Origin: Minutocellus sp. GHC0000111
Lineage: Eukaryota
Length of the DNA: 64,000 nt
Assembly (NCBI GenBank): GCA_977018835.1
Contig: OZ361256.1
Span: 4,712,001-4,776,000 of the forward strand
Reading direction: 5' to 3'
Shown here: positions 1 through 36,871 of the stretch, in pieces
Layout: the number at the start of each line of letters is the position of its first letter
Numbering within the stretch: position 1 is the first letter of the stretch
The notes under the pieces: model-generated
Database searches by the model: none
Told to the model about the DNA's origin: nothing
Seen by the model: only the letters and a program-made list of their open reading frames with translations
Made by a program: the position numbers and the translations under genes

Positions 1-42
1 GTGACATTGATGAACAGGTAAAGGTCGCTCTCGGCCTCAACT

Positions 43-1935
43 TTGTTGTTCGGATGGCCAACGATGACATGCTCCGTCCTCCTCGTCCCAATGCAACCGT
101 CACCGAACCAATACCAATTCAGAAAAGAAAAGCAGGCGAATGAAAGAATGCGGTTCAGCGCCGTGGCTCTCGCGGATTGGTGGGGATGCGGCGACCCAAC
201 TCGCACGCATGAAGACCGGCAACAAATTGCAACTGCCGCGTGTCGGCAAGTTGCGCACGATCACGGTTATGCCAAGTCAACCGGTGGTTCTCAGCTTTAC
301 AAGTGGAGAGACCAGCTCTACAAAAGCCTTACTGATGGCATCAGCAATCCCATCGGCAGAAAGGAGGTTCGTGGAAGGAAGGCATGCACGGACATGATCG
401 AGGAGAAGGAGCCAGGATGTCTCCGCGAGCTGTGTCGGCATGCTACTCGGATGAAGGGTGCGATGGCAACCTTTAAGGAGCTAGCTGACTGCATGAGCGC
501 AAAATCAGCTACTCCAGATGAAGATAGGCTGACAATTAGTCTCCATCGTCTTCAGCTTTTTCGCTGGTGGAAAAAGCAAGGCGGTAAGGAGAAGTCGTCG
601 ATCGAGAAGCCGAGGCTGACCCCCGAATGTTGTAGGAAGCGACTTGATTGGATCGAAAAGTGGGAGGACATTACGACCGATCCCAACATTCCTGTAGCGT
701 GTCTTGATGAAAAGTGGTTTTACACTGCTACTCGGCGACGAAAGATCAAGATGTTGCCACTTTCTGACGAAGAACTAAGTGGTCCGAACCTCGCGTCTAT
801 CCATGCTTCCGAGGCAAGCCCGAAAATTCGATCCAGAAGACACCCTGTCAAAGTTATGTGTCTTGGAGTTGTTGGCCGACCAATGAAGGATGAAACCAAA
901 GACGTTGATTTCAATGGGCGCATCATGATCAAGAGAGTCGCCAGGGAGCAGAAGGTGGAAAAGCTTACGCGTAATCAGAATTTCTCTCCAGATGCTAAGG
1001 TCAACGATGCGCTAAAAAATGACAAAGATTGGCGCGACATTTACGACGAGAATGCTGACATGACCGACGGCCATCTTTGCGACCACATTGCCGAAATCTA
1101 CGGCCTTTCTGAGTTTGTTACAGAGCGATTGGAACTTCAATACGAGGACTATAAATCCGACGGTCAGGCAAAAAGTCGCAAGCATGCCGCTGTTGGCTAC
1201 AATCAAAAGATCTCGAGTCTCAAGCGACACACTCCTGATAGCAATGGAGAGAAGGTGAAGGTTGAGATCGACGACCTTGAGCTCGGGGTGCGGTATCAAC
1301 GGGGCGATAAGGTTACCAAGGACTGTAGCTGCGACTCCAAATGGATGTTGGAGACTATGAATGAGGTCGGGAAGGCGATTCGAGACGCACATCATTGGGT
1401 GAAGTGGGATCCACAAAATATTCAGGAGTCTGATGTTGTGTATCTTATGATGGACAATGCCGGCGGTCATGGGTCCAATGAAGCAGTTGAGAAGTACACC
1501 GAGGACCTCAAAAACAAATATAAGATTGAGATAATCCAGCAGGTTCCTCGGTCGCCCGAGACAAATGTTCTTGATCTCGGCATCTGGATGTCTTTGCAGT
1601 CGGCCGTCGAAAAGGAGCATCACGGTCAGAAGAATGATGCGAATGCTCTTGACAAGACTGTGATGAAAGTATGGGCCAATGTCTCATCAAAAGAGGCCTT
1701 TCTCAATGTATTTGGAAAACTTCCAGTGATATATAACAACATCAAGAGAAGTCGTGGCGGTAACAATCTTGTGGAGACCAGACGTGGAAAGGCTGGTCTC
1801 GCAAAAATTGCCGAGGAAGAAGCTGAAGAGGATGGTGAACCACTCTGGCCAATTGATGCTCCCGGCGAAGATGATGACATTGAGGACGACATAGATGAAA
1901 ATGATGAAGACGATGGAGTCATTGATTTGCTATAA
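43..1935 (+). mobile_element. IS630/Tc1/mariner-superfamily transposase (DD39D type), 5' end probably outside the window; partly hypermutated
   Basis: Catalytic motifs LDEKWFY, MMDNAGGH and QVPRSPETNVLDLG with 39 residues between D2 and D3. Many Cys/His sit at positions where Tyr is expected. Left TIR not visible. Confidence 0.85.
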
Positions 1936-5928: not shown

Positions 5929-6499
5929 CTAGTATCCGTCCTGCGGCGCAAGTTGTGTTGGCCCTAACACAGTCGAGCGAGTCTACTTTGAATAGAAAGC
6001 CGTCACTTCTTCCACGTAAGATCAGAAACACGACCAACAGAAAAGCATGAGAAAAACACACCACGGTGCGAACACCACGTCACGCATTCCTGCCCCTTCT
6101 TACAAAGAACGCTTCTCAATGACGTGGCAAAAACTGCCTTGAACCCGGCCCCTCGGCAATCACAGCCCACACCAAGGCAGACGGGACAATAAGGTTCCAC
6201 AAGTCCTTTCGTCAAACATCACCCGCACCCTTGCCCGCACCAACCCATCAACTGCCGGCCTGCCCGATGCCGCCGCCACAGAAGTGCTCATTCTTTAAGC
6301 AGGCGAGAGAGGGTGAGTCGATGACTTAGTGATGGTGGCATCTTTTCTCCTCTCCTCGGTTGGCGTCATGTCACCGGCCGGGAGACAAATGCACATCATG
6401 CGGCCTGGCGTTTTTTCATGGACATGTCGCAACTTCGTCACAGATCGGCGGAGCTTTGGTTGGTCGGAAAGCTCCTTGATCCTGACGGAAGACATGCGT

Positions 6500-7666
6500 C
6501 TGTCGCTTCTAGTTGCAATGCATCTGTGCCGGATAGCATCTCATCTCCTTCCTTTGCGCTTTTTCATTCACACCGGCATGCTGTGGCACAATCAGCATTC
6601 TTCGCATTAGCTTGTCTGCATCTGCTGGTGTTGGGTGTCCTGACCGAAGCCTTCCCAGCATGCTGACGAGTTCAACCTGATCTGACTTTTGACGCTTGAT
6701 TGTCTTGAGTTCCATGCACTCTTCAGATGTGTCGAGAAAAAGCTGTGCTCCTGATGCAGCAACTCCAGTTTGCGCCTTTGTGAGTGTGAAGGCTGCCCTC
6801 CAACTGTGTCAAATGCTCCCTTTTGTGTGTTTGTTGGTGGGGGCAGCTGGTAGTCATCCCCCACAAGCAGAAAGATGGGCACCCCCCCGAACAGCTCTCC
6901 TTCGTGGCCTCCTCCATGAGCAGTTGCTGCAAGATTCCTCTCAGCAGCCCCAAGGTTGTCTGCTGTGCACATGCTCCTTTCATCTCAAGCACGTAAAAAC
7001 AACTGCCACTCTGTTGTCTTTCATCATTGTCTCTCTTTGCTTTTCTGAAGGGAAAGACGATGGAGAGTGAGGGTTTATTCCAAACTTTCTGTGCATTGTC
7101 TGTCCTCCCACTGACCATGCTGCTGCACCGGTGGGGCCAACCACATGGATGACGTTTTTCTCTCCTAAAACCTCCCTCACTGTGTTCACCAAGAATTTAA
7201 TGAAGAAGCTCTTGCCTGATCCTGCGCAGCCTTGCACCGTCAAGTAGAGTGGCTTGAAAGACCTGGCTTTGTTGACATCACTTGAAGTGGCGCACTCCAC
7301 CCACTCCTTGACCTTGCTCATCACTGTCAGAAGCAACTCCTGCTGGTCATTTTTCACCATTGACGCATCAATTGCCATGGGCTTTCCATCTGCTTCAGTG
7401 GTAAAAGGCAGGCAGGTGTGTCCACTCTGTTGCATCTTTTGAGCTGACTGCTTCTTCTAGCCAGGACCCCCCTTCAAGCATGGCGTCTCTCTTGCAGGGA
7501 ACATTCTCTGAGACCAGTCATAGTTTAGCCCTCTGTCAAACTTGAAGTCCCCAATGGTCACTCCTGGGTCGTTGCTGACTGCATTGGTTTTGACCAAGTT
7601 GAGGTGTCTCTGGTTTCATCATCCATGTCTCCGTGAGCCTCGTAGTCACAGCATTCTTCATCTTCT
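6500..7666 (-). pseudogene. Helitron PIF1-like SF1 helicase remnant (motifs I-IV), frameshifted and truncated
   Basis: LTVQGCAGSGKSFFIK (Walker A), VVGPTGAAA..VGGQTMH (Ia), FGGVPIFLLVGDDYQLPP (III), ELKTIKRQ (IV). Confidence 0.85.
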
Positions 7667-7862
7667 TGCTAAGAGGTCCTAAAGCTAAGCTAGATAGATA
7701 TAGCTAGTAGAGGTTAATAGGACCTACGTAGATGAAAAATGGGCCATCGGAGATGTCGTTGGCCCATGGATCAACGGTCAGGAGAGGGCACTGAGTCAGT
7801 GGTCTGATCACCGTACGTACCGTACGTATGTATACGTACATACGTATCCCACGGCATCAACA
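7667..7862 (-). repeat. 3' LTR (196 bp)
   Basis: tgctaagagg...tcaaca; direct repeat of 13681-13878. Confidence 0.97.
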
Positions 7863-7875
7863 CACCCTCCTCGCA
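7863..7875 (-). promoter_or_regulatory. Polypurine tract
   Basis: Minus strand TGCGAGGAGGGTG lies immediately before the 3' LTR. Confidence 0.75.
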
Positions 7876-7913
7876 GATCAATGACTAGTGCCATTGAATC
7901 TACATGTAGAGTC

Positions 7914-10900
7914 CTAATTGGAATCTACATGTAAGTAGACTGGTCGCATGTCGACATGGTAGCGGGCGGGATGGTGCTTTGTAAAATAATCGGCCAAATT
8001 TTGCGCTCCTTTCCGCCAGTGCCTAGGTGCACCTGGATGGAGTTGTCGTTGCTCTGTGCGATCTTGGACCCAGTAGAATCTCATGTCCATAGCCTTAGAC
8101 CGTCTTTGCTTGACGGTTTTATTGGCGATTCCAGATGCTGTAGAGTTGTCAACGACGATAGCAGTAGGGGGCTGCGTGTGACCCATTTCTTCTAGTGCTG
8201 CCCGGATTGGTGCTGCATGCATCTTTCTTTCATGTTGAAAACAATCCTCCCAATTCGGCTTAAGCGGCTGGCTGAGGACATTACATGCTTGATGATATTG
8301 GCATTGACGAGGATGGCTCCATTCATTGGTGGCATGGGATCACTTGAGTCAGGCTGGCGGTGCGGGTCCTTAGGTCGGGAGCTTAGGTAGAAGCACCCTC
8401 CGAGCTTGCTTCTTGATTTCGGGGCTGACAAGCAGGAGGCGTCGCTATGTACATGTAGGATCATGTCTGACTTGACGTATCGAATGACTGCGTCGGGATG
8501 GGTTGCAAGGTAATCTAGAAGCTTCTTGGCATCTTGTCGAGTGCGCTCGGCAGCTTTGGATTGTTCCGCTGAGATGCTGTTGAGCGCCGGTAAAATTGTT
8601 GAATCAATTGCTCGACCACAGCACAAGGAGCTGCCCACCACCTGTTGAATTTTGTTGATGCCTTTGGCGTCGAGTGGTGGTGAGTCGTCTTCCGGTTCTG
8701 GCAGCTGGGGTCCCGGGCCATACGTCGGACGATTCCATCGATATGGCGCATGCTCGGGCCGTGAGGGTCGGTCGTGTTGGAACTTGTGGCGCATCTCCTT
8801 GACGTAGTTAGGCACAGATAGATCCACCCATTTGGCCTCGTAGTTCCACTCGAGTTGAACACCACAATAAAGTCGGCCTTCCCAATCGGTAGTGATCTTA
8901 TACTTGGAGTTGAGGGCCTGAATGAGATGGTCTGCATGCTCTTTCCCGACATGCTTTACTCCAAAATCGTCAACGGTTAGGCAAAAGGTAATTGGGCGGG
9001 TTTTGTGCCTCCAAAGGCCGGCAGTGCGCTTGCAAGGGAAATAGCCATGGGGTTTGAGATGCTTGACAAGTTGATCGTAGGCTAGGCGCCCTGCCTGGGG
9101 TAATCCACACATTCCGCCATCGATTCTGACCAATACTCGACCATTCTTTACTTTGTCGTGGAGGTCGTAGGCTTCCATGACTTCGTCGGGGATGAGAGCT
9201 ACTGGCGCCCACATCCATTCTGGCTCTGGCATGGTGCTATTGAGACAGAAGTCACTGATATCAATTCCCATGAAACGAGCGTTGTCTGTAGAGATGACGC
9301 TGTTGAAAAGTAACTTTGCAGTCAACATTTCAGCGGTCGGGGTCGAGACTGTACCAGGGTAATGAATTTTGTCGCCTCCTGCAGTCCATCGAACTCGATT
9401 GGGATTTGGTTTATGGGAGCGATAGTCGGCGACAATGCGGAGGTATGTGGCTTTTTCCCCCCGAGGCAGTTCGGACCAGTGGACGAAAGCCATTGTATTG
9501 GAGGGAATGCTAGCACTGTTTCCAACTCGGCCGTCCGTTAGCCGTCCAATTTCATCGATGTTTGCTTGAATGAATTGGTCCCTCATGTTCGTTTTGAGGA
9601 GGTTGCGGTATTCAAGCATTGCACCAGTATCGGGATGGACGACGGCGTTAGCAAAGTGTTGGAGGTTTGGTAAAGGCGAGAAAGCTGCCATGTTGGCCAC
9701 GTGGTGGGTACTACGACGAGATGATGGCCGTGGGGGAGGGTTCCGATGTGGAATGTACCCTCGCTGACGGTATGATCGTCGTCGAGGTGGTTTGGCGGTC
9801 GATGGTTTGGACTTGCTTGTCGATTTTGCTGGAGCTGGTAATGTTGGAGTGGTATCGATCGTTGGAGACTTGCGTTTACGTTGCCGACGGGAGGTGGGGG
9901 CATTGGAACTTTGATTGGATGTTACGACGGTTGCATCGTCGTCATGATTATCATCATCGTCGCCGTTGGGCTCGTCTACTGCAGCCAAAGGATTGTAGTA
10001 GTTGGAAGAAACTGACGAGCGAGGTGGCGCGTTGGATCGACGTGATCGACGGCTTTTAGTGGTGGCTGCATCATATGTGGAGGATTTTGCCACCCTCGGA
10101 GGTTGCTGGGGCTGGGGTAACGGAGCGTTGGGGTTGGAGACAAGGTGACGGCCTACTTCAGTCTCGTTCATCTCTTCTACGTCGTCGTCCTCGTATTTGA
10201 TTTTGTAGTACTTATACTTCTTGTCAAATGCAACGACTCTACCCTTGTAATTGCGATCTCCAAACACTTTGGCGACGATGGTACCGAGGCGGAATCGTTG
10301 GGAGTCGTCATCGTTCTCCAGCACCCTCGGAGCTGCGGTTGTCTGCATCGTCTCATCAGAGGCGGAGGTGGCAGATTCTGCTGGGGTCACGCTGTTGAAA
10401 ATCTCGGAGAGCTTTTCTAAAGCTTGACGATGCTCGTCTCGAAGGGGAGCAAGGGGTGCCGCTGGATGTGGATTCTGTAGAGCGTGCAGGAGTTCATGAG
10501 CTGCGACTATTGCTGCATCGGCCGACGACGTTTTGGGCACCGGAATCATTTTGGGGAGCCAGACGAGTGTGTTACCAGTGCGTTCCGCCCGAGTTTCCTC
10601 AATCCAAACCTTGTAACACCGGTAGTGTTCCATGGCTGGACCGACATAGTACCCATCAACGCCATGCGGGGACCAAGAGCCGCGTGCCGAGGGCATCTCG
10701 TGAAAGATGACCTTGCATCCGAGGGGGCCGAGAGGCGTGCGATTGAAATCAAAGCCGCCATTGAGTTGCTCGTACGCTGATAGTCGAGGGTTGACTCGGG
10801 ATGCTCTCAGGAAATTGAGGGTCATTACCGCCTGCTCCAGCAATTTATCCCACAAGATGAGGGGAAAGTCGGGATCGGTACCACAGAGAATCGCAATGAA

Positions 10901-12100
10901 ATGATTCTTAAAGGTTCGAATGGCTCGTTCGGCCGCATTTCGGCGGTGGGAGTGCGTTGGGGTCAATTGAAAATCTACATCCTTTTCTTCCATGAACTCC
11001 TTCAGCTCTCGACTCACTTCATTATCCAATCGTTGCAATTTTGGGCGAAATCCTCGCTTGGAGAGGTATTCGAAAATAGTTTGGTACGCTCGGCGCATTT
11101 CCGTTCCCGATCGGCTTTTCATTGGTTCGGCCAAGATGCTGTTGGAGTCATAGTCATAGACGACCATTATGTACTGGTGGCCAGAAATAGACGATACCAA
11201 GAAACGGCCGGGCTGATCTGAGAAGATCTGGCCCGTTATGTCATGACAATCAGCAAAGACATAGTTGGTGCGCTGTTGGTGTTGTGCCGGGTGGAGATCC
11301 TGCTCGGTTTCGTCCACCCCAGGGAGAGATTTTGGCGTAGCCATCGACCGTTTGGGCTTGGTCGACCTGATGTTCTTGCGCTGCTGGTCTAAGTGACCTT
11401 TAATCATCGGTATCGACTGTGGCATGTGCTTACGTACAAGCTTCGATGTGAGGCCTGGCCAAGATCTATAAAATCCCGCATCGATTGCTTTGCACCAGGT
11501 AGATAGCTGAGGACTGCCAGCGCACCAATCCGGAACCGTCTCCTGGGCAATTGCGGCGTTGGCAGCATATTGGATGACGTTGGGGCCGGGGAGCGGCGAC
11601 ATGGTGGGCGAGCAATTAAGATCTACCATCCACAATTTCGTTGAGGGGTCTCGTTTACCTTGCAAAATGACGGTATTGTCCTTGGCGATGACTACCGAAT
11701 CCTTATCGAAAGTGGCAATACATCCATCGTCACACAGCTGCCCAATCGATAGGAGCGATGATGCCATATTATTGAAAATATAGGCCTTGCTAGCCGATGG
11801 GGAAACCCCAGGGAGGCGAAGCGTGGCCTCGTGGGTGTTCGTCATTGTGCTATTATCCGGAAGGGTGACGCTGATAGGAATTGCTGTCTGTTGGACGTTG
11901 AAAATAGGGCCATCGTACGATAGGTATTGGGGCTTCTGGACAAAATGTCCCGTCGTTCCAGTATCTGCTGCGAGGACGATTGGCTCTTGAGTTGGAGGTT
12001 TGCTTTTTGACGTAAGAAAAGCTAACGAAGGCGGGGAGGAGGTGGATTCAGATATACTATCCTCTATTTTATACTGATTAATATCCACCGTCCCTCCCGC
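7914..12100 (-). pseudogene. Copia pol (protease, integrase, Tudor-like domain, RT, RNase H); frameshifted in RNase H near 8230-8270
   Basis: ADTGTTGHF (protease), GHLDQQR, RLDNE and NAAERAIRTFKNH (integrase), VDDFGVK (RT), HSDAS and KAMDMRFYWV...NLADYFTKHH (RNase H). Confidence 0.93.
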
Positions 12101-13384
12101 TCAGTTACGACGCGAGCTACCACCGCAAGGATTGCACTTGGTGGCGTTATCAACGTGGTTGGGCCCTTTGCAAGTGCATTCAAAGCTGGGGTGGTTGGAC
12201 GAATAGCCGCACGTGTGGCAATAATGGCCTCCGGGGAGGATCGACTGCAGTTCCCGCTTCTCCTGGCGGTTGAGGTTAGGACCTTGGCCTGGGAAGTGGC
12301 CGGCGCCGTTCTGCTGGCCACCGCCGCGGTAGCCTCCACTGCCACCAGTGTGGTTGCGTCCCTCACGCAGAACGCGCTTCTCGGCCTTGAGTGAAGCCAT
12401 TTCTTGGCGAAGTTTGGCAATGGTATCATCCTTCTCGTTGCTCTTTTTGGCGAGGTTCGCCATCATGGCTTGGTTGGTCTTGAGGGCTTCGGTGGTATCA
12501 GCCAAAAGGAGATCGGCTCGAGAAAGAAATGGATCGTCCGAGGCCGATGAGGCCAAATTCGCGCCATGATATCCTGCCGCTTCGGTGGTGGTATTGGCCA
12601 TCTTCTGATCATACCAATCGCGGAAGTCCGACTGCATGTTGGCCCACGTGCGTTCGGCCTCCGGTCTGTCGTCCCAGTCCTCGCATGCCTTCTTTGCCAA
12701 TGAGAACCTGCGCACGGAGCGGTAGAACTTGGAGACCTTTTGCTTGTTGGTGAAGGGTTCGCCGGCCGTTTCAAACGCCTTGAAGACTTTGTTGAACATG
12801 GCGATGTGGGTGTCGATGGGTCCCCCGTCGCACTGCTTCTCGAGCTGCTTCTCTAATTCCTCCTTCTGAGTCTCGTTGAATTTCAAGTAGCGATCGGTAA
12901 TGCTGTCGATGATTTGGCGGATGGTGACTGGCTGGAAACCGAGCATGTCATCTTCGAGATGATTGATGTAGACGGCGTCGATCGAGTCGAGGAGGAGATT
13001 CTTGAGCGCCGTGTTGACTTGCTCGTACAAGTTGTAGTGGCCCTTTTCGATGTAATGTCCCCGGATTGCACGATCGCGTTGGTCTAGATTGGCCACGGCG
13101 GGAATGGTGGGGCTGGGGCCAGGATTTGCCGGAGGCACATGTGGTCGGCCGTTACTTTTGGTGGTGCATTCGGCATCGCTGACGACGAGGCCCAAATGGC
13201 CGAGGTTGTTATGGTCATTGCACCCTGCTGGAATGCTGGCCGCCGCTTGTTGAAGTTCCTTGAGCGCTTTGGCAACACGCTCGCGTTGGGGAGGTTGTCC
13301 TGGGTCATTCATACGTGTGATTAACTTGGTGGGGAGAATCGGCGCTGCGCCGAGAGGTTGGCCAAAAACTGCGTCGGGATTCAT
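12101..13384 (-). CDS. Copia gag with C-terminal zinc-knuckle-like motif
   Basis: GHLGLV, PANPG and YCHTCGYSSNHPSFEC..KGPNH...AT..N..GGS; located between the 5' LTR and pol. Confidence 0.88.
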   Translation of the reverse strand: MNPDAVFGQPLGAAPILPTKLITRMNDPGQPPQRERVAKALKELQQAAASIPAGCNDHNNLGHLGLVVSDAECTTKSNGRPHVPPANPGPSPTIPAVANLDQRDRAIRGHYIEKGHYNLYEQVNTALKNLLLDSIDAVYINHLEDDMLGFQPVTIRQIIDSITDRYLKFNETQKEELEKQLEKQCDGGPIDTHIAMFNKVFKAFETAGEPFTNKQKVSKFYRSVRRFSLAKKACEDWDDRPEAERTWANMQSDFRDWYDQKMANTTTEAAGYHGANLASSASDDPFLSRADLLLADTTEALKTNQAMMANLAKKSNEKDDTIAKLRQEMASLKAEKRVLREGRNHTGGSGGYRGGGQQNGAGHFPGQGPNLNRQEKRELQSILPGGHYCHTCGYSSNHPSFECTCKGPNHVDNATKCNPCGGSSRRN

Positions 13385-13680
13385 GCTGGTGTTTCAGTCA
13401 GCGAAGACAGGCAGCACGGCGGTGTTGCTGCGAGACGTGTGATCGACAGAAGGTTCGATCCAGAGAAGTGTGATCGATTGGATGGGTCGATCTGGTCAGG
13501 ACTTTCGGGGAAGGGATTGGATCGTCGTTCCAATATTGTCGAAAGAAACGGTCGTTTTGGCCGATTGAAGATGGGTCGGTTTTTCTTGCGTGACGAGTGA
13601 GAACCAACCCAAGAGACAAACCGGTGAGGTGCGAACCGAAATGGGGCGAGCACGGGTGGAAAAGATGTATCACGTAGGTC

Positions 13681-13878
13681 TGCTAAGAGGTCCTAAAGCT
13701 AAGCTAGATAGATATAGCTAGTAGAGGTTAATAGGACCTACGTAGATGAAAAATGGGCCATCGGAGATGTCGTTGGCCCATGGATCAACGGTCAGGAGAG
13801 AGGGCACTGAGTCAGTGGTCTGATCACCGTACGCACCGTACGTATGTATACGTACGTACGTATCCCACGGTGTCAACA
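13681..13878 (-). repeat. 5' LTR (198 bp)
   Basis: Differs from the 3' LTR by a 2-bp AG indel and 4 substituted bases. Confidence 0.97.
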
Positions 13879-13883
13879 CTTCT

Positions 13884-16800
13884 GCTGTTGGCTCACTGTG
13901 GCGTTTCTTCACTTTGCGCTCTCTCACCCTGGCGTGCGCAATCTTGACTGACTGGGGGCAGCACGAGTCAGAAAGAAAGTTGTTGAACTCTTTGATCCAT
14001 TGCTCTTTGCTTAGCCGGGGAGGTGTTGATGCTCTCCATGGCCTGTGCACTAGCAGCGTCATTCTGGCATAGTCCTTAGTGAGTGTGACTGGGAATGTTG
14101 GTGGTTGCCCCCTCCCTCCTATCCAAATGTGGAATGACAGCTTTCTCAGTGTTCTTGCTGCCAATTTGTTGTTGGAACAGGGTTCTTGGCAGCTATTTTT
14201 CTGTATTTGGCAACCAGTCCATTGTGGGTGTCTGATGTGAGCTTGTAGCTGCCGGGGACAAACTAATTGATTGATGATGACTCGATGGTCTCCGTGCACA
14301 GGATCAAGGGAAGCTTGTCTAGCTCCACCATGCACTCTTGTTTTGGCACAAGTCTGCTGACCACGGCTCTGTTGAGCAGCTTCCTGGCCAATGTGATTAC
14401 ATCATCAACATGCACTGGAAGTCGAATCAGGGGATTGAGCATGCGCGTTACAGCGTGAAAATGACACAATGAACGGAAATAGACGCGGGATCAGATTCTT
14501 TTTGAATACTCGCGGGTATTCAAATGGAATTGGTCCCGTTTTGGCACATTTGCATCCAACGCAGCACTCACCGATTGACGATGGCTGAAATAGTGTCGCG
14601 TTCGGTGGCCAGTGTCTCGTTTCCTTTGCATGCGTAAGCGACAACATAATCGGTAACTTCGGCTATGTCCTCTGGCGTTGGTTCGCTGTCGTGACAGTCG
14701 TACAATAACACTTTGATATCACAATTGCCACGCCATCCTCTCAGAACGTTGAGTGGGGTCTGAATCATGCGAAGGTTGTTCCGCTTCATTTCGAGCTTCA
14801 GGAAATCACGATCATCACGGGTGATGGCTTGGTCTGAACGTAATTGGAATCCTGGTGTATCGCAAGCATTTGGGGTCTTCTCGTATCCTGTTCCGGCACG
14901 GCAATATCGTCGTTTATCTGGTTTTGCGGTGCTTGAATTCGTCTCGTGTGTGCTGGGAGGGGAATTTGCTGATTCTTTATTTTTCTTCGCACGATGGTTT
15001 CGCATGCAGTAGCTCCCGCATTTATGATGTTGGCATTGAAAACAGAGTCGAGCCTCGTCCTTACGATAGTCGGAAACCTCGCCGAGACGTTGTTTGCTTG
15101 CTCCCATGTTACCGCTTTCGTCAGCAGGCCTGTCGAGAAAGGAGGAAGAGGGATCATGAGACCTTGTCGCGTCTGATCATGTTGGTTTTTGATTCAATTT
15201 GCACATATACTCACTCGCTATTCCTGTCGATGGATGAAGTCATGCCGAAGACCCGTTCTGCCCAGTCCCCAACGAGTTTGGCCTGATCGGCGTGACTTCT
15301 GCCTCCGTCATTTAGCTGGTCCTGGAGGTCTCTTGTCATGGTCTTGTCCAATATACCAAGAAGATGGATGTGTATCTGCCCCCGTCCTTTGGCAAATTCC
15401 ATTCGGCCCCAATAATATTTTATGCCGAGTAATTCCTTTCCGACGGTGTTCAAGAAATTCTCTGCACGTTTGATGAAATATTGTTGAATTACGAGGGCAT
15501 AGTCATTGACGGCTCTGTTTCGATCGACCCTATTATTGCTGAGGTCAATCTTCCGTCCGTCGCGAAAGCATCGATTTCCGTTTACGATTTTCCTCCCTTC
15601 CGCGATCCATATGCGTTCTTCTAGGAGCCGTATTGCATCCGGCCAAAAATATTCCGCACAGGAGAGGGTCATGAATATGTCTGGCGCTCCGTGATTGGCT
15701 TCTATGTGGTGAGAAATCCATGTGTATAATTTTGAGCGTTCTGACCGCCAGTATGAATCTGATCCACGAACTCGCTTGCTGTAGAAAATGAGTTTGCTAA
15801 CAAAGGAAGAGTCGCCCTTCCTTAGCTGTTCCTTCAATTCATCGAGAGATTTGGGCGGATCGCTGATGTGATTGTTGATGAAGTATCCTCCGCTAGAATT
15901 GTTACGATGTCTTTGGCAGTAGTTATACACAAAAAATCCCCAGAGCTTGTCTCGCTGAAATCTTCCATCGGCCTGCCGTAGAAGATGTTGTGCCCAATTT
16001 GCTACGTCTGTCTGATTCACGGTCAAGATCGCGGAAATCACCTGTTCCTCCCGGGAAAAGCCAAGGGAATGCATTCGTGAAGATGCGTACATTGGAATAT
16101 TCCGAAATGGCATCGGGATAGCTGGTCTGTGGCCAATCAAGCTTTGATACGTCGCTCTGCTCGCCTGCTGCCTCCTTCAAAGCATTTATCATTGCTTCTT
16201 GATTTTCGTGGGTGAGCGATGTTGCCTCTTTACACGAGAAACCTGAGCATTCCTCTTCATCATTATCAATCATCAGGGGATCGATACATTGGGAATTGGA
16301 CACCCCAGTCTCCTCGGTATCAGCGAGACTATCATTTTTTTCGGTGTGCACTATGTCAGTAACGGATAAGAGATCAGCCTCATCTATCCCGGCGGGCATC
16401 CAGTCAAGATTTGTTTCATCAATAGTCAATTCACCGTTCTCGTAGGCTTGCCTATAATCAGAGTGGTGCTTTACGAGCCAGAGGAGAGCATTCATGACGC
16501 GACGACGATTCACTGTGTACATTGTCGTGACCGGAAGACCGTCGCTATTTTCGTGAGTTCGAATCATCCGTATTGCTTTGACTTGGTGAGGTAATTTTGG
16601 GAGCGACGAAGCTAGATCTTCGATATTTTGCATAAAGGAGCAAACGTGCCCCTTTATTCCAAGATTGCCATTTTTTATGTGATGTATTGGCACGAGCGGT
16701 GAGACGCGCTGGATCAATAATTTCTCGGCAATAGTGAGGCATTCTAGTTCCGGAGGAACCTCTAGATGCTCCTTACCCTCATCATCAATCCACAGTGGGA

Positions 16801-17323
16801 TCATGGCATTTTCTTTCGTATAATCATTTTTCGTCCGTTTATTTGCACACCTTCGACAGACATTATTCTTGTTTACAGTCATATCAATGCTGCACTCATT
16901 GCACAAAGAGCAAACATCATGGTGAAGTTGCATCATTCTCGATTCAAATCGCATGAGCGATTCGAGTACCTTCTGTTCGGCATAGGTTGATGCTCGGAAT
17001 GCTTGGCGATTAATTGCGTACATATCTTCCTTCCTGAAGTGGGCGTCTCTTTTCCTCCTCGCTGCCGATATTACCTTGGTGGCTTGCCCAATGGCGATTT
17101 TGTACTTGTCATTGTTCAGTGCACGATATGGATCGCAAGCACTCAAATCAACGTCCAACTCTATTGCGTCTTCCCATAGCTGCTGCACATGAAGAGCATC
17201 ATAGTCGCGAAGACGGTCATGATGCGGTGGCTTTATGTTCATCCTGGGTATGCTCTCCTTCCTTTTAATTTGTTCTAAGTGTCGTCTAGCATTTTTCAGT
17301 CGCTGCTTTTCTTGTTTTGATAC
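13884..17323 (-). pseudogene. Helitron Rep (DUF6570-like plus HUH/Y2 endonuclease), several frameshifts
   Basis: LTIAEKLLIQRVSP...IKGHVCSF, AFPWLFPGGTGD, RGSDSYW, FMTLSCAE..WPD (motif 1), RMEFAKGRGQIHIHLL (HUH) and YVVAYACK (Y2 motif). Confidence 0.9.
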
Positions 17324-17419
17324 CTGTTCATTGTGTAAAAAATAATTTTAAAATTGAAAGTTAGCGTGCTAGCAGTAAGGGGCTGTGATCATCAGCTAGT
17401 GTAGCTTCTTTTTGAATAC

Positions 17420-18604
17420 CAGGGGGTATTCTTTCGGAACCAAGCCATGAATCGGGTGATTGGTATTTTCCTGATTTTGCCTCCGCTTGAGATTGCCGGT
17501 GTGTGGAACGCAGACGCCACCGCGAAGACGAATGTTTGCCATCACAGTTGATCCATTGTGCATTCCTGTCTCCCACAACTTTGCCTTTGTGTGCTCTAGT
17601 AGCTTTGACCCAAACGTCGTGTACACGTCAGATGGCGACACCGGCAGTTGAGTTGCCAGCATTGCTGCCACTCTGCGATGTAAATCAATGCAACTTTCTT
17701 CCTTGCTAGCCGGCGTGGCGATGACTGAGCCATCAGGGCACTTAATGAAGATCACCCACTCTTGGTCTTTTTTGTCAATTGCGTCCACTGTGCATCCATT
17801 GCTCAACCCCAAGCAGCAGAGTGGCAGGGGACAGTCGTATCGGTTCCCATCATAAAGAGAGTCAATGTCCACTGTGCCCCGTCCTGCTAGCTTCTCAGTG
17901 GCAAGCACAACTTGAAGCCACAAGTTCCGCCCACTGCAGGTCCTTTTCACCTTGACCTCAAATGGCGATCCAAAGGGTGACCGGACCTTGATTGACCAAA
18001 CTTCTTTGGGGCCGGCAACCAAGCTGGCAGACAGCCTCACCAGGCATGGGCTGTGCGCTGCTGGCATCAGCTTCATCCTGAGGGAAGCCCTTGCCAGCCC
18101 ACGCTTTAGCGTCTGGTGCAAAGAGCAAAAGCTCATCTTTTCCTTTACCTTCTTGTCCATGAAAAAATAGCTAAACCCCTTTGATGGCACACCAAGAGGG
18201 CTGACTTCAAGCACCAAGCACCAAGATGGGGCTGTCACAAAAACTGAGGGCTTTGCAACAGTGTTCCCTGTGTTGCTCAGCTCCACTGTGCTCCCAATCT
18301 CGGCAACATTTAAGGAAACAATGCAGCTTCTCATCATCTTGAAGAGCCTCCTGTGTTGCTGGAACACGCTGGTTGAGCTGCAAGCCATTGACACCTCGTC
18401 AACACTAGGCGAGTGCACGAGCACAGGGAGTTGACACAGCAATTGCTTTTTGAGGCCTGAAAGGGGGGGAAGAACAGACTTCTCCTGTCTGGCATCACTG
18501 ATAGAGATGCCATGTGTGCCAAAACTGGAGGTGAAGAACACAAAAATGAGTGAGAGGTGCACTAGCAGAAGTTGAAGCACACAGTGAGGAGCAAACAGGT
18601 GCAA
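17420..18604 (-). pseudogene. Tandem ubiquitin-like domain exon(s), probably spliced in frame to Helitron Rep via a 96-nt intron (17324-17419)
   Basis: IFIKCPDGSVI...FGSKLL...LWETGMHNGSTVMANIRLRGG. GT donor at 17419, CTAAC branch point, pyrimidine tract and CAG acceptor at 17324; same frame as the Rep ORF. Confidence 0.65.
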
Positions 18605-18629: not shown

Positions 18630-20489
18630 CGAAGTCCGTTTCGCGAGAAATCGAGCGCAGGGTCGGGACCAAAACAGCGACTTTTTGGGCCCTCAACCGC
18701 CTGAATCTTAGATCTACCGGCATTGAATACATGTACAATGCAAAGTACATGTATTGCAGCAGCTAGTATCCAGATCTACAATCCAATCTAGTATTATTAC
18801 ACATAATATAACTTAAAAGCACCGCAGGACTAATTATCCATGGTTGGATCAGCAGGAGGAGGAGGAGCGATAATTTTCCCATCTATCCGAACCATGCCAT
18901 TTTCAGTCGGCCTGAAATCCTTTCGCACCCCAACATGAATGCCTTCACCGTTTCCAAGAAAATCATTGTTGCCTTTTGCAACGATTACCTTCTTTGCAAT
19001 TCTATGAGCCTGGATGTATGCCGATGCGATCTTCCAGTTTTCCAGCCCCATCCAAACTTCCTCCGCTGCATCCCAAGTCTGATCCTCTGTCAAAACCTTC
19101 AGCCCCTCCCGATCGCGGCACAACATTGTATGCTGCTTTGACATGCAAGGGAAAACAGACAGATCAAGAACATTCATATGGGGCATTTGCGGGGCCTGAG
19201 GTTCCCAACGCCATCCCTTGTCCCGACAGTATCCTTCCACATATTCCACAAATTCAGTCTCGGCATGGGGCCCAGCATTGTCGCCCTGGAAAATAGGGAC
19301 ATAGCCTTCAAACTTTCCGCCAGGTCCGACCAAAGCCTCAACATCCGGAAATATCTTGTTCTCAAACAAAGCTTTCAGTGGGAACTTGGGATTATCAAGG
19401 GTGCCATGGCTGCATCCAGTCACCGCGCAATCCACAAGGTATAGATCGTCTTTCTTCCGAACCACCGGGCCGCAATATTTGATTCTACCATCTGCCTGCC
19501 GCACCGCCTCCCTTACCATCTGCCTCGCAATTTTATGCGCCTGAGCCCGAAAAAGTCCAAGCTTGAACGCAATGCCGCCATTCTCAATGCTGTCAATAAA
19601 AGCCAAGGCAGTGACAGCCACCACCATGCACTTGTTGATGTGATTCTGGTGATATGCCGAGAAGGACCGAGGATCAATACCCAATTCTGCAACTTGCTTG
19701 GCATACGATCGAAGAACCAAGCCCCAAAACCACTTCTCATCGAACATAACAAGGAGAAACTTGCCACCGCCGAGCCCCCAATTGTTTCGGAATTTCCGCG
19801 CAAATGCCAAATGTTTCTCCATCTGATGTGTAGTAAGGAGAGGGATGATCCTTTCAGCATAGTACCGGAACCCTTCCCGCGACATTATCCACCGCCGTAT
19901 TGCCGAGTAGGAACACCAAAAGTTGACATCCACCTCCAGCTCCCGCCAAGATTCCCGAGGATTTCGTATCAGAGCATCAACAATAACATCTCGAATGTAT
20001 GGCTGCATAGCCAGATGAGATCTCCTCTTCATCTCCCACATCGCCTTCTCAGATGCAGGTAGAGCACCATACGCCTTCATCCATCCCGAAAATCGTGCGC
20101 ACCATGCTCTGCGCTGGACAGCACCGAATAGTCCACCTTTGCCTGCTCCCTGCACTTGGCAATTGCAAAGAGACATGGTGCAGTATACCGCCGGGTCGCC
20201 GTTGCAAGATCGTCGATGACAGAACGGAAGGCGGCCGAATCAGATGAATCATCGGCACTCGTTGGGAAGCAGTATACCGGTCCAAGTGCGACGAACGCGT
20301 CCATTTGATTAGAGCCGCTGAAATCTAAAGTCTTATCCGAATTATTGTTTCACATGAAGATAAATCAAAATTAGAGTAAAAATAGCCATTTTCTTAAATA
20401 TTTCAGCATGACTATTCTTCGAGGCGCTTTTCAATCCCCTCGAAAGCAGTCAAAAACCGGGCGCTCGATTTCTCGCGAATCTGACCTCG
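18630..20489 (-). mobile_element. Complete Tc1/mariner-like DNA transposon (1860 bp) with 29-bp TIRs and TA TSD
   Basis: TA|cgaagtccgtttcgcgagaaatcgagcgc (18630-18658) and gcgctcgatttctcgcgaatctgacctcg|TA (20461-20489) match at 26/29 as an inverted repeat and enclose the transposase. Confidence 0.93.
18830..20304 (-). CDS. Mariner-like transposase (DD38D spacing), possible HMG-like N-terminus, frameshift near 20110
   Basis: MFDEKWFW, FQGDNAGPH and QAPQMPHMNVLDLSVF; ATG at 20304 is in a different frame from the main ORF. Confidence 0.85.
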
Positions 20490-24809: not shown

Positions 24810-25381
24810 CGCAGACAAGCACCAGATGGTCCCCCCTGGTGCCGCGCACATTTCCTCACCAAAACCACCCCGACGCGGGAGCACCACTCGTCATTCGTCA
24901 TCATGTGGTCCCGCAACGCATCGGCATCGGGGGAGGAGGTGCAAGCATAGACTACAGTAACCCAACAGATATGAGTCCATTGAGGACTGTTCTGTCTAAT
25001 ATGTTTAATTGTTGTCTACATATTACGGATACAAGGTTCCTGTGTTGGGTCTTTGGGTTTCAATCGAGACCACAAGCAAGCAAGAAAAATCATTTCACGA
25101 TGAGGCTCGACAACGACGGCAAAGTCAAGAGTGAGGCTTGCACATAGATCTATTCCAGGAACCTTTGCCGCTTTCAAACCAATTGGACAAATGATCACTA
25201 AATATGGCCCATGGAAGAGGCCTTGTATGCTTCATATGACCCTGAAGTGTCACCTTCCTGGAATGAACTCCAGCAATCGATCCAATGCTACCGACGCTAC
25301 ACATGCATTTCTGCTTCACTGGGGGGCTCCTGAATGTTGCACTGAATTGAATCAATCTTTGGCATCTTGGTTGCTACGTAG

Positions 25382-25821
25382 CTAAATGATTCCATTGCTT
25401 GCCAGGAACCCGACAGTGAGCACAACCAGGACCACCGTCACCTGTCCGGCAAGCTTGAGAGTTGGTCCCAATACGGCGTCGCCCGTTATTCTTTCTTCAG
25501 GTTCTTCGTCTACTTTTCGCGAAAGGAATCCTTGGTAATATTCGGACGATCCCACTTTCACATTCTCGTCATTGCTGTCTCCTTCGGCCATATTCACGAC
25601 AACATCAGACGCCGATGGCTTTAGAAAGGGTGGGACGGTCCGTGCGGCCAATGGAGATGGGTCGATAAATGCTGTTGCCGGCAGTGGTCTTTGTCGCGTC
25701 TTTCGCGCATGTAGCGGCCTCGGGTTGGCGTCATTTCGAGCAGATGCCAATGATGCGAGAAACAATAAAATGGCCACGGAAGCAGGCGGGTGGGTCGTCA
25801 TTTGCGGAGATAATCGAGCCA
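25382..25821 (-). CDS. Small secreted or plastid-targeted protein with C-terminal TM helix
   Basis: Signal-like VAILLFLASLASA, core GSSEYYQGFLSR...GDAVLGPTLK and a hydrophobic C-terminus; start codon uncertain. Confidence 0.6.
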
Positions 25822-26084
25822 TAGCTTCTTTACTGTTCAGTCTAATGTTATGCGAGGGGGGGTCGTGGGGGAATGAGAGCTCGAGTGAGGTTCGTTCTGC
25901 TAGGCAAAGTTCCTGCGCTGATGTGGCGCGCGCGGGAAACGAGCCTGCGCAGATATAACGATCGAGAGAGGAACTTTGGAGTGAACTCAATCGACGGGAA
26001 GGCAAACTCGGCACAAGGCATTGCACTTTGTCGCACGTACTGGTCACTTCATTTCTTTCTCGACGACATATCTCAGCATAAAGG

Positions 26085-28004
26085 ATGCCAGCAACAAGAA
26101 GACAGCGAGCAGCCGCCGTCGGCAAGACCGGTGGTGATGCGTCCGAATCTGAAGACGACTCCAGCAGTGACGAGGAGGACGGCGAGACCGAGCATTACTT
26201 CAACGGTGTCTACTACGAGTCCTACGAGCTCATGGTCCAGGCCAAGCGCGAGCGCAACCGCCAGAGACTCGAAGACAGCGGCCTGCTGCAGGCCTCCCGT
26301 GCATTCCGTGATGATGTGGAGGCGTCCAAGGCCTCCAAGAAGAGCGCCACCAAACGCGGCATCAAGACCGACAAGAAGCGCAAGGCTGCTCAGCCTCTTC
26401 CACGTCGCAAGTCGAGCCGCATTGCTGGAGTTCAGGCCGATGGCATGTACGTTGAGGATGAGCGCGCTGGTCGATTCACTATCGCTGGCTCGCCCTCGGC
26501 AGGTGGATCGGCTTCTGCTGTGGCTGCAGCCACTGTTGTCGAAGTAGAAAAGGAGCGTTTCTTCAATGATCGCATTAATGAGTGAGTGCAGTAATATCAG
26601 TGATATGGCATTCTGAGAGAAACTTGCTATTTTGGTTTGGGGGCAATTGCATCATATCATTTTATCTCATAAATCTTCTTTTCCCTCCTCTTACTTTGAA
26701 CTTATCACAGTGGCTCCGATATCTCGGTCAAGCAGGCAGCTGAATATCCCGGAAGCAAATGGGTCAAGGAGGGAACTGTCGAAGCTGCCGAGAAGTTCAT
26801 GGGTGACTTTCTTCCTTCTCTGGCTGACGATAAGGCCATGACTGCAGTGTCCAAAAGTCCCAAGTCGGTGACTCTCAAGGCCAGCCCAAAGAGCAGCAAA
26901 GGAGTATCCTCACTCACTGCTCAAATTGATGCTCTCAGTGTTGACGACGAGAATTGTGTCTCCAAGGTCGTCCCTGATCGCATCTATTCCGTGGCTTGTC
27001 ATCCCTCTCCTTCGACTCTTGTGGTTTGTGCTGGTGACAAGCAGGGACATGTGGGTCTATGGAACGTCGATCAAATTGGAGAGGAGTCCAATGACACCGA
27101 TGGAGTCCACCTGTTCAAGCCTCACAACCGCGTCGTCACTCATCTCGAGTGGAACCGTGCTGGTACCTCCCTAATCAGTGCTTCGTATGATGGATCCGTG
27201 CGCTTGTTTGATATTCAGACGCAAAAGTTTGATGAGATTTTCGCGACATATGACGATGATGCCAGCTTCAAGGGCACCCTCGGTTATGGTCTCGATCAGG
27301 GCTATGGATACTGGACCCAGTACGCATGCATGGATTCACGCAGCGCCGATGATCGTTGCCTGTTCCTCTCTACTTCCAAGGGCGCTGTTATGCATGTCGA
27401 TCTCCGTAGCAAGGGCAAGATTACCTTCCATCAGGAGCTTAGCGAGAAGAAGATCAATTCGGTAAGTCTCCACCCTGACGGCAACATCCTGGCCACGGCC
27501 GGTCTCGATTGTACCGTCAAGTTGTGGGACCTTCGCAAGTTCAAGACGCCCAAGGTAGCCCACAAGCCCACCACCGGATGCAAGCCCCTTGCCATCCAAC
27601 AGGCCGGCAAATCGGTTAACAGTGCCTTCTTCTCTCCCAGCGGCAAGACCATTGTTTCTACCACCATGAACAACTATCTCGATCTTACCGATGATATGCA
27701 TAAGCAATCAGGCACCGTCAAGGCCACCACGAAGATCCGTCATGACAACCACACCGGCCGTTGGCTGTCCACCTTCATGGCACAGTGGCATCCCACCATG
27801 ACGAGCCAGGAGATGTTCGTCGTTGGCTGCATGAAGCAGCCCCGTACTGTCGAGCTCTTCAACGGCGCCGACGGTAAGAGATTGCGCGGTGTTTCCGGTG
27901 AGAGCCTCACGGCCGTCGTCAGTCGATGCTGCCTCCATCCCCGTGAGGATCGCCTCATCGTCGTCGGTGGCAACTCCAGTGGACGCGTCACTGTCGCTCG
28001 CTAA
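26085..28004 (+). CDS. WDR76: WDR76/CMR1-like WD40 DNA-damage-binding protein, intron 26582-26710
   Basis: RIYSVACHPS, AGDKQGHVGLW, DCTVKLWDLRK and HDNHTGRWLS; the GTGAGT..CACAG intron joins the two ORFs in frame. Confidence 0.8.
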
Positions 28005-28227
28005 TATAATATCTTAATTGTAAATAAATGGAAATGATGATACAGATATGATATTTTGCAACGAAAACCTTCCTCTCTTTTACGTAAAAGTTAGTAATGA
28101 TATTACAACATAACCGCCCTTTCTATTTCAGGAGAGTCAACGATTTCCCTACAAAAAATGATTACACCAACAAAAAGAGCTCTCTAACATAATGTTCTAA
28201 ACAACGGTACAGGAACCCAAAAAATGC

Positions 28228-29008
28228 TTAGACGCTGCAGGTACTCTTGAGGTAGGCGATGAGGTCCTTGCGCTCAGCGGGCTTCTTGATGCCGGCGAAG
28301 ACCATCTTGGTGCCCTGTGGTTCAAAGGATAGAGAGAAAAGAAAGTGAAGAGGTTGGGTGAGTCAAAGATCTCCAAGGAATTCTGATCCGCAAGATTCAT
28401 TTGATGGGTGGTTCGGGATGCAGGACCCATCCCAAGGCCAATTCGATTCAATGATGTGCGGTGCGGTGCGGTGCAGGACCCATCATCATTTCCATTTTGT
28501 GCGCTCGTTCGTTCAGCCCGTCCGCAGATGATGTGGTCCCCCACGAGTCCCAGCATTAGACAAGCAAAAAGAGACCTTCTATCCGATCCAGTGGGAAGCA
28601 ATTAGTCCGAACCACGCCTGCCTGCCGACCGAACCCTCCGCGACAAATGACGGACGGGACAACGGAAGAAAACGGCACTGGCGAACAGAAGGACCAATGC
28701 CCGCATTGCATCGGCATTGTTTGTCAAGATACGAGATATTTTGATCATCACACGGAACGCACCTTGATGTACTTCTTGGGGTTCTCGAGGTAGTCGAAGA
28801 GGGTCTCGTCTCCCCAGGTGATGCCGGACTTCTTGTTGGCGGTGGAGTAGGAGTATCCCTCGGCCTGGCCGGACTGGCGGCCGAAGAAGCCGTAGAGGTT
28901 GGGCCCCTGCTTGTGGGCGCCGCCCTCCTCGACGGTGTGGCACTGCGAGCACTTGGTCTTGAAGACCTTGGCTCCCTTCTTTTCGTTGCCGCCCTTCTTC
29001 TTGCCCAT
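28228..29008 (-). CDS. CYC1: Mitochondrial cytochrome c, intron 28315-28762
   Basis: CSQCH heme motif, [30 protein letters not shown]. Confidence 0.97.
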
Positions 29009-29386
29009 GGTTGCTGTTGTTTTGGTTCTAATAAGTTGGTTCTAAAAAGTGCCGATTCGTGACGAAGCAAGGCGAACACTCGCCAACACAGCCAACACGT
29101 GGTCGTGGTTGGACAGTTGGACAGTTGGACAGGGTTTGGCTGCAGGTTATGAGCTCAAACTAACGGTACGTCCGTCGACCAAATGACTTACTCGACTGCA
29201 AAAATGAGGTACAACGTCAAGTATGCAGGCAACAGCCGAGCTGAGAATGAAGGGAGGCGGACGGAGGACGGACCACCACGAAAATTTTGAGTGAGCGAGC
29301 GCGAGCATGAAGCATGATGATGCCGAAGAAGCATGCATCTACGACGTATTGAACATTGAACCGACGTGGTAAAGAACAAAGCAACG

Positions 29387-32300: not shown

Positions 32301-34183
32301 TTGACAAATCTGCTTTTGTTTCCGTTGTATCAAGAAGAGATTGTATCTCAGCACTGCAAGCTATCTTCAAGTCCGGTTTAGTGGATGCCATTCTTAACAA
32401 GGTGTTGGTGTGGGCATTTGTGTCGGAGTGGAAGGGCCCGCTGCAAGTTCCTACGAGTGGGTCTGCGTCTTTATCATTTCCCGAGGAGGCGAACTCATGC
32501 GCGTTTCTCTCGGCATTTGTCTCGATGCTATCTAATATGATCAACAATGAATCGATTTTCGATGATGGAAATGGTTCGATGGAAGAAAGAGCAGAAGTCA
32601 AGTCAATTGCAGATGCGTTCTCCTCTCTGGTATACTCTACTCTGTCTGCCTTGTCTGCGACCGATCTGGAGGCGACGGCGATACCAACAGCGGCGCAGTC
32701 TGGTTGGATTGATGCTACTCTCTATGTTCTCGTCAAATTTCTTTGTTCGATGAAGCGACAAGATTCGAATGCATTATCTGCAAGTGATGAGGCCGAGACC
32801 GAGGCCGATGACGGGCTAAGGCTTCTGAGAGCGATGTCGTTTGCCTTGATTGGAAGATTGAAGGTGGGAGACGAAGCTATCGCAGCTGTCCTTCTCAGCC
32901 AAGATGTCTTGTTTGTGACTCCAAGTTTCAACGACCGAAATAACCAAGGATCACCGTTGCAAGCCATGTTGCTCCGAGAACTGGTCAATTCACCGCGCTC
33001 CCAGAGTCAACTTGATCATAGCTTCAAGCTTCACAGAGGTCATGGTATCACCACAGCCGGTCTTGGGGCATTTGGTCTCGAATCACTGAGAAGTGACGCC
33101 GAGTTTGTCGCTCCTCCGACTAGGGCCAATGAAGATGGCCAAGACCGCAGCATTGCAGTGGAACCACTCATTCCGCTGGGAAAGGTGTGGCTGTGGCAGG
33201 TACTTTCAAGTACAATCGACCCGCCACCAGAGACAAGCGCCCAACAGCGAGCTGAATTACTCCATGATGCCGCCGCCGTCATTGTATCATCGCTGGAGCT
33301 GTTAACATACCTGGAGAGAGGGGCGTCCTCCCGTGTTTACACAAGTCAGATTCATTCCGGCGCCAAGCTCTACCATCTCTCCAACTCCTGTCTCTTTCCC
33401 GAGGAAGTGCTTCGGCATGAAAAGTTTGAGCAGCTGTTTTGTAGCCTCTTCGAGGATATATCGTCCAGGGATGGCTTCCTGTCGATCCCCAAGGCTTATG
33501 TTGAGGCTTGCTACCAGCATTCTCGAACGACCCGAACAAAGTCTGATAATGACAGCGGAAAAACGAATGGAAATACAGATGAAGAGAAGCTCCTGGAACT
33601 CTTTGAGGGCAAGTCAAGCAAATCCCAGGAATTCAGCGCCAAGGAAGTCGCCGCTCTTGTGGATTTTGTCGGGGATATGTGTTCTGCGTACATCGAGTAC
33701 GGCGCTCAGTACGAATCTCTCAATCATTGTATTCGCCTTTTGCTTCGGTATGGATTTCCACCCAAGGCAAGGATAGAAATCATTACCAAGCTCCGAGGTC
33801 TGCTACATCCGCTCACCTTCCAAAGAGAACTGGATGGTGGATGCAGTGAGGGAATGGCCGGGTCCTTGGAATTGAGTTTGGCGGTTGGTTCTCAAAAGGA
33901 GCCGCCAGAGGTCTTGGATGCACTGGTGAACGCCCTGTCCTCAAAGGATCCAAATGACAGCATCCGCCGGTTAGATGCACAGACTGGTGGGTATGCCTAC
34001 TACTTTGCGGTCGCGTCCCTGGCCCACAGCTACGCAAGCAGTGTCCTGTCGAAAGAACCAGGAGCGCAAGAGGCGGCAGGTCGGCGAATGGATCGATTGG
34101 ACGACAAGACTCGAGCAGCTGTTTTGGGGGCTGCCGAAGCCATCGAGGAGAAAGGATTAGTCAGTGCCGTACAAAAGTCGTAA
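29387..34183 (+). CDS. RPAP1: RPAP1-like RNA polymerase II-associated protein; one in-frame TGA at 30296-30298
   Basis: NADSMLSGMSRAEIMEGIAEIESALSEQSIAFLKARG resembles the RPAP1 N domain; also GFPS and LLRSTAYRQ. Both ORFs share one frame. Confidence 0.65.

Positions 34184-34357: not shown

Positions 34358-36871
<2,514 letters not shown>

Follow-up and report, generated by a model that had tools for sequence, protein, structure and literature searches.

The 64,000-nucleotide window analysed here (Minutocellus sp. GHC0000111, contig OZ361256.1) carries a full-length, CoDi-like Copia LTR retrotransposon of 6212 bp (7667..13878, minus strand) with TG...CA ends, flanked on both sides by the 5-bp target duplication CTTCT (7662-7666 and 13879-13883). 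The 5' LTR (13681..13878, minus strand) and the 3' LTR (7667..7862, minus strand) are 97% alike, with 4 substitutions and a 2-bp indel between them, and their differences include one TA/CA (7818 vs 13834), one CA/CG and one CA/TG doublet. A gag-like ORF of 430 aa (12101..13393, minus strand), so labelled from its position, is followed by the pol ORF (8192..12100, minus strand), which encodes protease, integrase, a Tudor-like insert, reverse transcriptase (RT) and RNase H. Paired LTRs, TG...CA ends, a 5-bp duplication and the order protease–integrase–RT–RNase H identify the element as Copia, the domain order being taken from motifs and the CoDi subgroup being a putative assignment; the Pfam match to RVT_2 is weak (E 3e-4), and pol has 930 homologues. 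The Tudor-like domain (PF21743, E 1e-11; 10150-10285, minus strand; pol residues 606-650) lies between integrase and RT, is present in the three closest relatives of the element too and is missing in more distant ones; it is possibly a chromatin-targeting module. Pol departs from its relatives' frame near 8270 and shows indels relative to reads at 8218-8266, so that damage unrelated to the changes described below has also disrupted this copy.

The Copia element sits inside the helicase half of a Helitron (6000-17400), along which damage changes in a sharp step. The part at 14571..17347 (minus strand; Helitron_like_N and DUF6570) is young-like, being 99% identical to P0168 and not depleted of TA (rho TA 0.59), and the remainder, comprising the decayed PIF1 helicase part at 6000..7666 (minus strand; rho TA 0.18 and rho CG 0.55 over 6000-7450) and a decayed part across the Copia element at 13880..14500 (minus strand; rho TA 0.33, rho CG 0.47), is stripped of both TA and CG. 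In 6000-7666 there survive 19 TA, none of them RTAY. In run X2 the stripped part is covered ~13 times as deeply as host DNA, and it may therefore have been amplified after mutation or have recombined with a young copy. An empty-site joint (7661>13879, in three runs) was considered as an insertion polymorphism and rejected as proof: its contig has a depth of 1483 in X2, against ~110 for host DNA, so that other Helitron copies account for the joint. A second decayed patch, probably of transposon origin, lies at 17400..18500 (rho TA 0.30, rho CG 0.46) and matches no Pfam family; it holds a 459-codon stop-free frame, and long stop-free frames are to be expected where TAA and TAG are removed, so that an ORF called there need not be genuine. 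Searches of Pfam, PDB and plasmids found nothing matching P0373.

At the left edge of the window an ORF at 22..1935 (plus strand) probably encodes a Tc1/mariner-type transposase, an assignment made from DDE-like motifs in common with a Tc3-type ORF (18833-20239); Pfam missed it. The host portion of the window includes a Hemingway/CFAP97-domain gene (39749-40354, minus strand), of a flagellum-related family and of possible use in placing the host, a multi-PAS repeat gene (50340-53702, minus strand) and a 1045-bp tandem duplication (45521-47616) that is identical save at its junction. Named homologues of one host gene come from Cyclotella, Thalassiosira, Skeletonema, Discostella and Cyclostephanos and from one haptophyte, and point to a diatom as the likely host.

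The first-pass annotation had drawn attention to 8380-9260, the RT/RNase H end of the pol ORF on the minus strand, and its readings of the codons are borne out: the motifs read DFCL (9245-9247, minus-strand codon TGT), GMCG (9107-9109, TGT), GVKH (8951-8953, CAT), LCCG (8618-8623, TGC TGT) and DASCL (8432-8434, TGC), and KAAE carries a TA-type change at 8551 (T|GCC). The Tyr consensus which it had given for the changed sites is likewise present in the closest pol relatives, P0001 (86% identical), P0003 (82%, frameshifted ahead of the last compared sites) and P0002 (70%), which carry Tyr or Thr there; the changes are thus real TA>TG/CA changes from an ancestral TA, polarised by relatives. Three further TA-type changes that it did not list occur in the same stretch (I>V at 8860, M>V at 8815 and Y>C at 8395), and the hypermutated tract as we define it spans 8242..9247 (minus strand), with TA hits at 9246, 9108, 9026, 8953, 8860, 8815, 8622, 8619, 8551, 8433, 8394 and 8242. 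The window differs at 41 of the 826 columns with agreement among the closest relatives. Of these departures, 11 are TA>TG/CA and 2 are A>G in other contexts; 6 are CG-type, a further 6 are transitions of other kinds, 14 are transversions and 2 are multi-base changes. Hence 11 of the 13 A>G/T>C-type departures lie in TA context, where ~16% of such non-synonymous opportunities are found, and 10 of the 11 fall within 8395-9247. Conserved Tyr was lost at 7 of 18 positions in 8389-9247 and at none of 26 in 9361-12073 (Fisher p 8e-4, with the boundary set after looking), which indicates a tract and not damage to the whole element; with 32 TA dinucleotides still standing in 8380-9260, the statement that Tyr was converted 'systematically' went too far. 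Nine of the 10 amino-acid-changing hits in the tract are sense-strand A>G (p 0.009). Among 120 representatives of distant homologues, conserved Tyr columns depart to Phe 22, to His 15 and to Cys 4 times (2212 cells), a comparison that is uninformative because the representatives are mostly intact consensus forms.

Other copies show the same type of change. When cluster members were mapped onto the window's codons, the Copia copy P0124 carried 9 TA hits among 13 differences and P0128 carried 4 among 6, so that 13 of their 14 A>G/T>C-type changes are TA (16% expected). Among the 15 listed copies of the Helitron (cluster of 30), 4 have TA hits and the rest ordinary changes only, and TA accounts for 11 of the 18 different changes of A>G/T>C type. 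The earlier claim that either strand can be affected is confirmed by opposite-strand outcomes at one and the same dinucleotide: at Tyr 11086 one copy has acquired His and a second Cys, and at Ile 17071 of the Helitron the outcomes in different copies are Thr and Met; moreover, hits at 11170 and 11173 of P0128 lie on different strands a few bases apart. As the sister proteins sit on Mb-scale contigs and may stem from the window's own assembly, they speak to direction and patchiness and not to independence from artefact. We know of no RNA intermediate in Helitron movement, so the hits in the Helitron indicate DNA as the substrate. DNA of relatives was found neither in viral contigs nor, by protein search, in metagenome contigs, and a pattern scan of the metagenome for the Tyr>Cys form of a single RT motif turned up 41 loci, of which 3 are Copia-like (rho TA 0.66-0.76); since these three are not TA-depleted, that collection lends no support to generality.

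The stretch occurs, whole or in part, in 20 of the 22 public sequencing runs listed. We compared contigs from four of them (one Illumina RNA library each from 2016 and 2018, and two runs from 2024 that lack a library record) with 7500-14000 as transposon and with 25000-44900 as host control, and examined the 40 best-supported rows of 171 (transposon) and of 501 (host), a choice independent of context. The 40 best of 171 transposon rows consist of 26 TA<->TG/CA, 7 CG<->TG/CA, 4 other transitions and 3 transversions, whereas the 40 best of 501 host rows consist of 4 TA, 8 CG, 8 other transitions and 20 transversions (TA rows, best 40 each: Fisher p 5e-7; transitions alone, p 6e-4); the host rows are unpolarised and partly coding. 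The complete per-run Ts/Tv ratios agree in 4 of 4 runs, with 9.2, 10.0, 5.5 and 5.1 for Copia against 1.5, 1.3, 1.9 and 1.7 for host DNA, although the host tallies take in contigs <90% alike. Four of the 7 'CG' rows (best 40 of 171) are halves of TG/CA doublets, and the doublets at 8860-61 (a conserved Ile) and 9025-26 (one contig with TA) began as TA; further TG/CA doublets lie at 12349-50 and 12831-32 in gag and one in the LTR. Counting singles only (best 40 of 171), there are 22 TA per 474 sites vs 3 CG per 864, which makes the TA process ~13 times commoner per site than the CG process.

The best 40 of 171 rows also bear on direction: wherever a single-site row sets G/C in another copy against a TA-type A/T of the window, the context is TA (15 of 15; p 6e-13, given that 15% of A/T sites are in TA context), and the only other single row, 9604, records a CG that the window has lost. 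At least 6 such hits in other copies are polarised by conserved residues (8901, 9610, 9771, 11569, 11767 and 11781). In host DNA, 2 of the 10 rows running from window A/T to G/C are TA (12.5% expected, p 0.36; best 40 of 501). The dinucleotide at 9025-9026 occurs as TA, TG and CA among contigs; reads, by most of their depth, restore TA at 9246, 8815 and 8551, and the window's own allele is found also in X7 (9246) and X10 (8860), so that the window's alleles are derived and are present in amplified libraries too. Dense TA clusters are seen in other copies at 11767-11781 (4 in 15 bp) and at 12053-12082 (4 in 30 bp), the latter common to contigs of all four runs. Restriction to transposons, as had been claimed, thus holds for this one window, and the A>G excess is confined to TA in the transposon, with an ordinary spectrum in host DNA. 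Among host genes, CDC48 and a WD40 gene (the putative WDR76) are present and a cytochrome c exon has Tyr codons, but the keeping of Tyr by host genes is a weak control because selection alone would give the same.

The hits obey a tighter rule than TA. Read-derived hits are T-A-pyrimidine (TAY) in 25 of 26 cases (background 0.56, p 7e-6; best 40 of 171 rows), and with the protein-derived hits, a set biased to Tyr codons, 55 of 56 are. Hit rates are 19/71 for RTAY, 6/123 for one-strand sites and 0/40 for YTAR. In agreement, the TA that survive in the old patches (6000-7666, 13880-14500 and 17400-18500) are 6 RTAY and 21 YTAR, against 81 and 28 in young Copia and Helitron DNA (p 9e-7), and host stretches retain RTAY (O/E 0.73-0.76). 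As Tyr codons are TAY and hence a perfect target, conserved Tyr become Cys or His. AA is hardly affected: there is 1 AA>AG row against 26 TA (best 40 of 171) in a stretch holding 783 AA/TT and 474 TA. Applied along the window, the RTAY index singles out 1-1000, with 1 RTAY against a host mean of 10.6 and a minimum of 3 (39 host kb); the Tc1/mariner-type ORF there has 5 Tyr and 11 Cys in its first 330 aa vs 10 and 3 in the rest, and the first half of this transposase is likely, from its codons, to be a second hit tract, with the second half apparently spared. The Tc3-type ORF is untouched (RTAY O/E 0.85). TA loss in the old patches is accompanied by loss of CG (rho CG 0.3-0.55).

The window also contains a small conserved family gene (38092-39576, plus strand) with a helical N-terminal domain and a zinc-dependent deaminase domain (HxE and PCxxC). 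It is the only deaminase seen in this window; an in-frame TGA (38914-38916) interrupts it, and a Phe stands in place of a Tyr invariant in 67 relatives. Named members of the family come from centric diatoms and from Prymnesium, ten distant members carry no taxon name, and viruses have clusters of similar-looking deaminases. There was no PDB sequence match; by fold, the deaminase domain scores Z 11.8 with cytidine deaminases vs Z 9.2-9.6 with TadA/ADAT2, and the best fold hit of the N-terminal domain (Z 6.2) is no clear match. Considered as the mutator, the gene receives no support, given its internal stop and a fold nearer, if narrowly, to cytidine deaminases.

Taken together, a mutator process that is real and enriched in mobile DNA is, in our judgement, very probable. 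Within the window it is patchy and confined to mobile elements; its direction, its context, its action on both strands, its occurrence in DNA transposons as well as retroelements, its patchiness from copy to copy and within copies, and its absence from neighbouring host DNA are all directly observed. As to mechanism, we see roughly even chances that it is adenine deamination in silenced chromosomal DNA, a reading that we favour because the changes are pure transitions in a tight local context, lie in tracts and lean to one strand in the window's tract. A candidate host enzyme would deaminate the adenine of TAY, making adenine the modified base, and replication would then fix A:T as G:C. A strand lean of 9/10 is what a processive single-strand enzyme would give; the mixed strands of P0128 show that strand coordination is not general. 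The process may well be episodic and cumulative, with young copies bearing no tract or one and old Helitron DNA nearly stripped of susceptible TA, and its role would be one of defence. It may be steered by silencing that also brings CG methylation, considering that the old patches lose CG too; since hits lie no closer to CG than unhit TA (median distance 10 vs 6 bp, p 0.17), this link is drawn from co-depletion only. According to one preprint (bioRxiv 10.1101/2025.05.14.653640), DNA adenine deaminases engineered from the TadA family prefer YA or YAY, which matches the TAY rule by analogy only. The first-pass annotation had proposed a repeat-targeted mutator acting on adenine: real TA transitions, both strands and strong enrichment in transposons stand, and repetition as the trigger and adenine as the base are proposals. 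The hit elements are multi-copy (by rough depth ratios), and the perfect 1045-bp tandem duplication shows no internal differences, being either very young or an assembly error.

The base could instead be thymine, marked or oxidized by an enzyme at RTA sites of transposons and then replaced by C through misreading or repair. Because TAY reads RTA on the opposite strand, A>G at the former and T>C at the latter give an identical outcome that the sequence cannot tell apart; modified thymines do occur on repeats in some protists, and the higher hit rate of RTAY than of one-strand sites and YTAR fits a reader of a symmetric site. A simple TAY rule would, however, itself produce part of the RTAY excess, and some of the hits counted come from proteins and are biased to Tyr; we consider thymine unlikely. 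Patches of error-prone repair, of the kind made by polymerase eta and set off where transposon DNA is methylated, would account for tracts, for A:T transitions and for the co-occurrence with CG loss, yet the WA motif of that enzyme includes AA, which is all but spared here, transversions are few and hits are not nearer CG, which makes such patches distinctly improbable.

Editing might also befall a transposition intermediate, RNA or cDNA, and not the chromosome. The sense-strand lean of the window's tract would suit this, as would the cluster at 12053-12082, since hits common to contigs of several runs can be inherited through transposition. Against it, single copies are hit on both strands, a Helitron and a likely Tc1/mariner element, neither of which to our knowledge has a reverse-transcription step, are hit as well, the LTRs differ by a TA/CA change, and old DNA is near saturation; we regard it as highly improbable. 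Finally, a genome-wide bias visible only in transposons under relaxed selection, or a base-calling artefact, could be argued from the partly coding nature of the host rows and from sister proteins that may come from the window's own assembly. Half of the host differences are nevertheless transversions, with no excess of TA among the host A/T>G/C rows, host stretches keep RTAY and many of the 15 Helitron copies listed show ordinary changes only; TA-type variants are also present in contigs from amplified Illumina RNA (2016, 2018), as is the window's own allele at 9246 (in X7) and at 8860 (in X10), although no same-strain reads were identified. Bias or artefact is therefore largely refuted, and we find it scarcely credible.

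If genome-wide, the process would mean that a TpA mutator is not peculiar to a single rhizarian alga and its viral inserts, ordinary transposons in a likely diatom being targets as well, and since diatoms have knockout tools, the search for the enzyme is testable. A natural A-to-G editor of DNA, if real, would be of consequence both for base editing and for our picture of immunity in eukaryotes. The TAY rule offers a biochemical fingerprint, and the RTAY/YTAR index flagged a transposase that Pfam missed. There is also a bearing on the dating and annotation of diatom transposons, where an excess of TG/CA cannot be put down to CpG decay alone.

Among known systems, RIP of ascomycete fungi is homology-triggered in the sexual cycle and turns C into T at CpA, creating TpA. 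The process described here resembles it as a context-specific transition hypermutation that destroys transposon copies and is opposite in direction, the polarised changes running TA>TG/CA. Decay of 5mC likewise yields TG and CA, and is visible here in the old patches, but it starts from CG and cannot make Cys or His out of Tyr; the earlier argument against both RIP and CpG decay is sound, in that the ancestral Tyr, Met, Ile and Thr codons require TA. CG methylation by DNMT5 targets CoDi and other diatom transposons (PMC9998398), with which the CG loss of the old patches agrees. Polymerase eta gives A>C/G at WA motifs (PMC4686820) and thereby clustered A:T mutations that include TA, but hits at AA and changes to C would then be expected as well, unlike the 1 AA vs 26 TA rows seen here (best 40 of 171). 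TadA/ADAT2-family deaminases and adenine base editors make A>G with a YA/YAY preference on DNA, as far as the above preprint goes, and are engineered or tRNA enzymes. The comparison with Bigelowiella natans is the closest.

In that chlorarachniophyte, a preprint describes TpA-only A>G/T>C hypermutation, raised about 1000-fold (Mettrop et al., bioRxiv 10.64898/2026.01.13.699255), so that the signature itself, contrary to the first-pass view of an undescribed pathway, has already been reported; our literature search, which mostly left subscription journals uncovered, returned no diatom report of it and only this preprint as relevant. There, in some of the lines only, it strikes a giant-virus insert present as a single copy and also a virophage insert, an adenine deaminase is proposed but unproven, with ADAT2 as a candidate, and TpA-poor coding sequences are enriched for DDE and RT domains; in the preprint's main text neither the word diatom nor a flanking rule appears (bioRxiv 10.64898/2026.01.13.699255). 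Common to both, as far as the preprint's main text goes, are TpA>TpG/CpA on both strands, foreign or mobile DNA as target and an ordinary host spectrum. They differ in host (a rhizarian vs a likely diatom), in targets (viral inserts vs Copia, Helitron and a likely Tc1/mariner element), in copy number (a single-copy insert vs multi-copy elements) and in the loss of CG alongside TA, which marks the old patches here; patchiness is among lines there and among and within copies here, and is an analogue only, and a rate per generation was measured there, whereas copies only are compared here. The TAY rule and the sub-element tracts, absent from that main text, are found here. What is new is accordingly a different supergroup with different targets, the context rule, the tract structure and the host-DNA control. 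We know of no natural DNA adenine editor shown in diatoms. Tentatively, and with the balance somewhat against it, diatoms and chlorarachniophytes might share an ancient defence: a natural DNA adenine deaminase that reads TAY, is directed to mobile or foreign DNA under silencing and leaves kilobase tracts, an A-to-G mirror of RIP and APOBEC across SAR.
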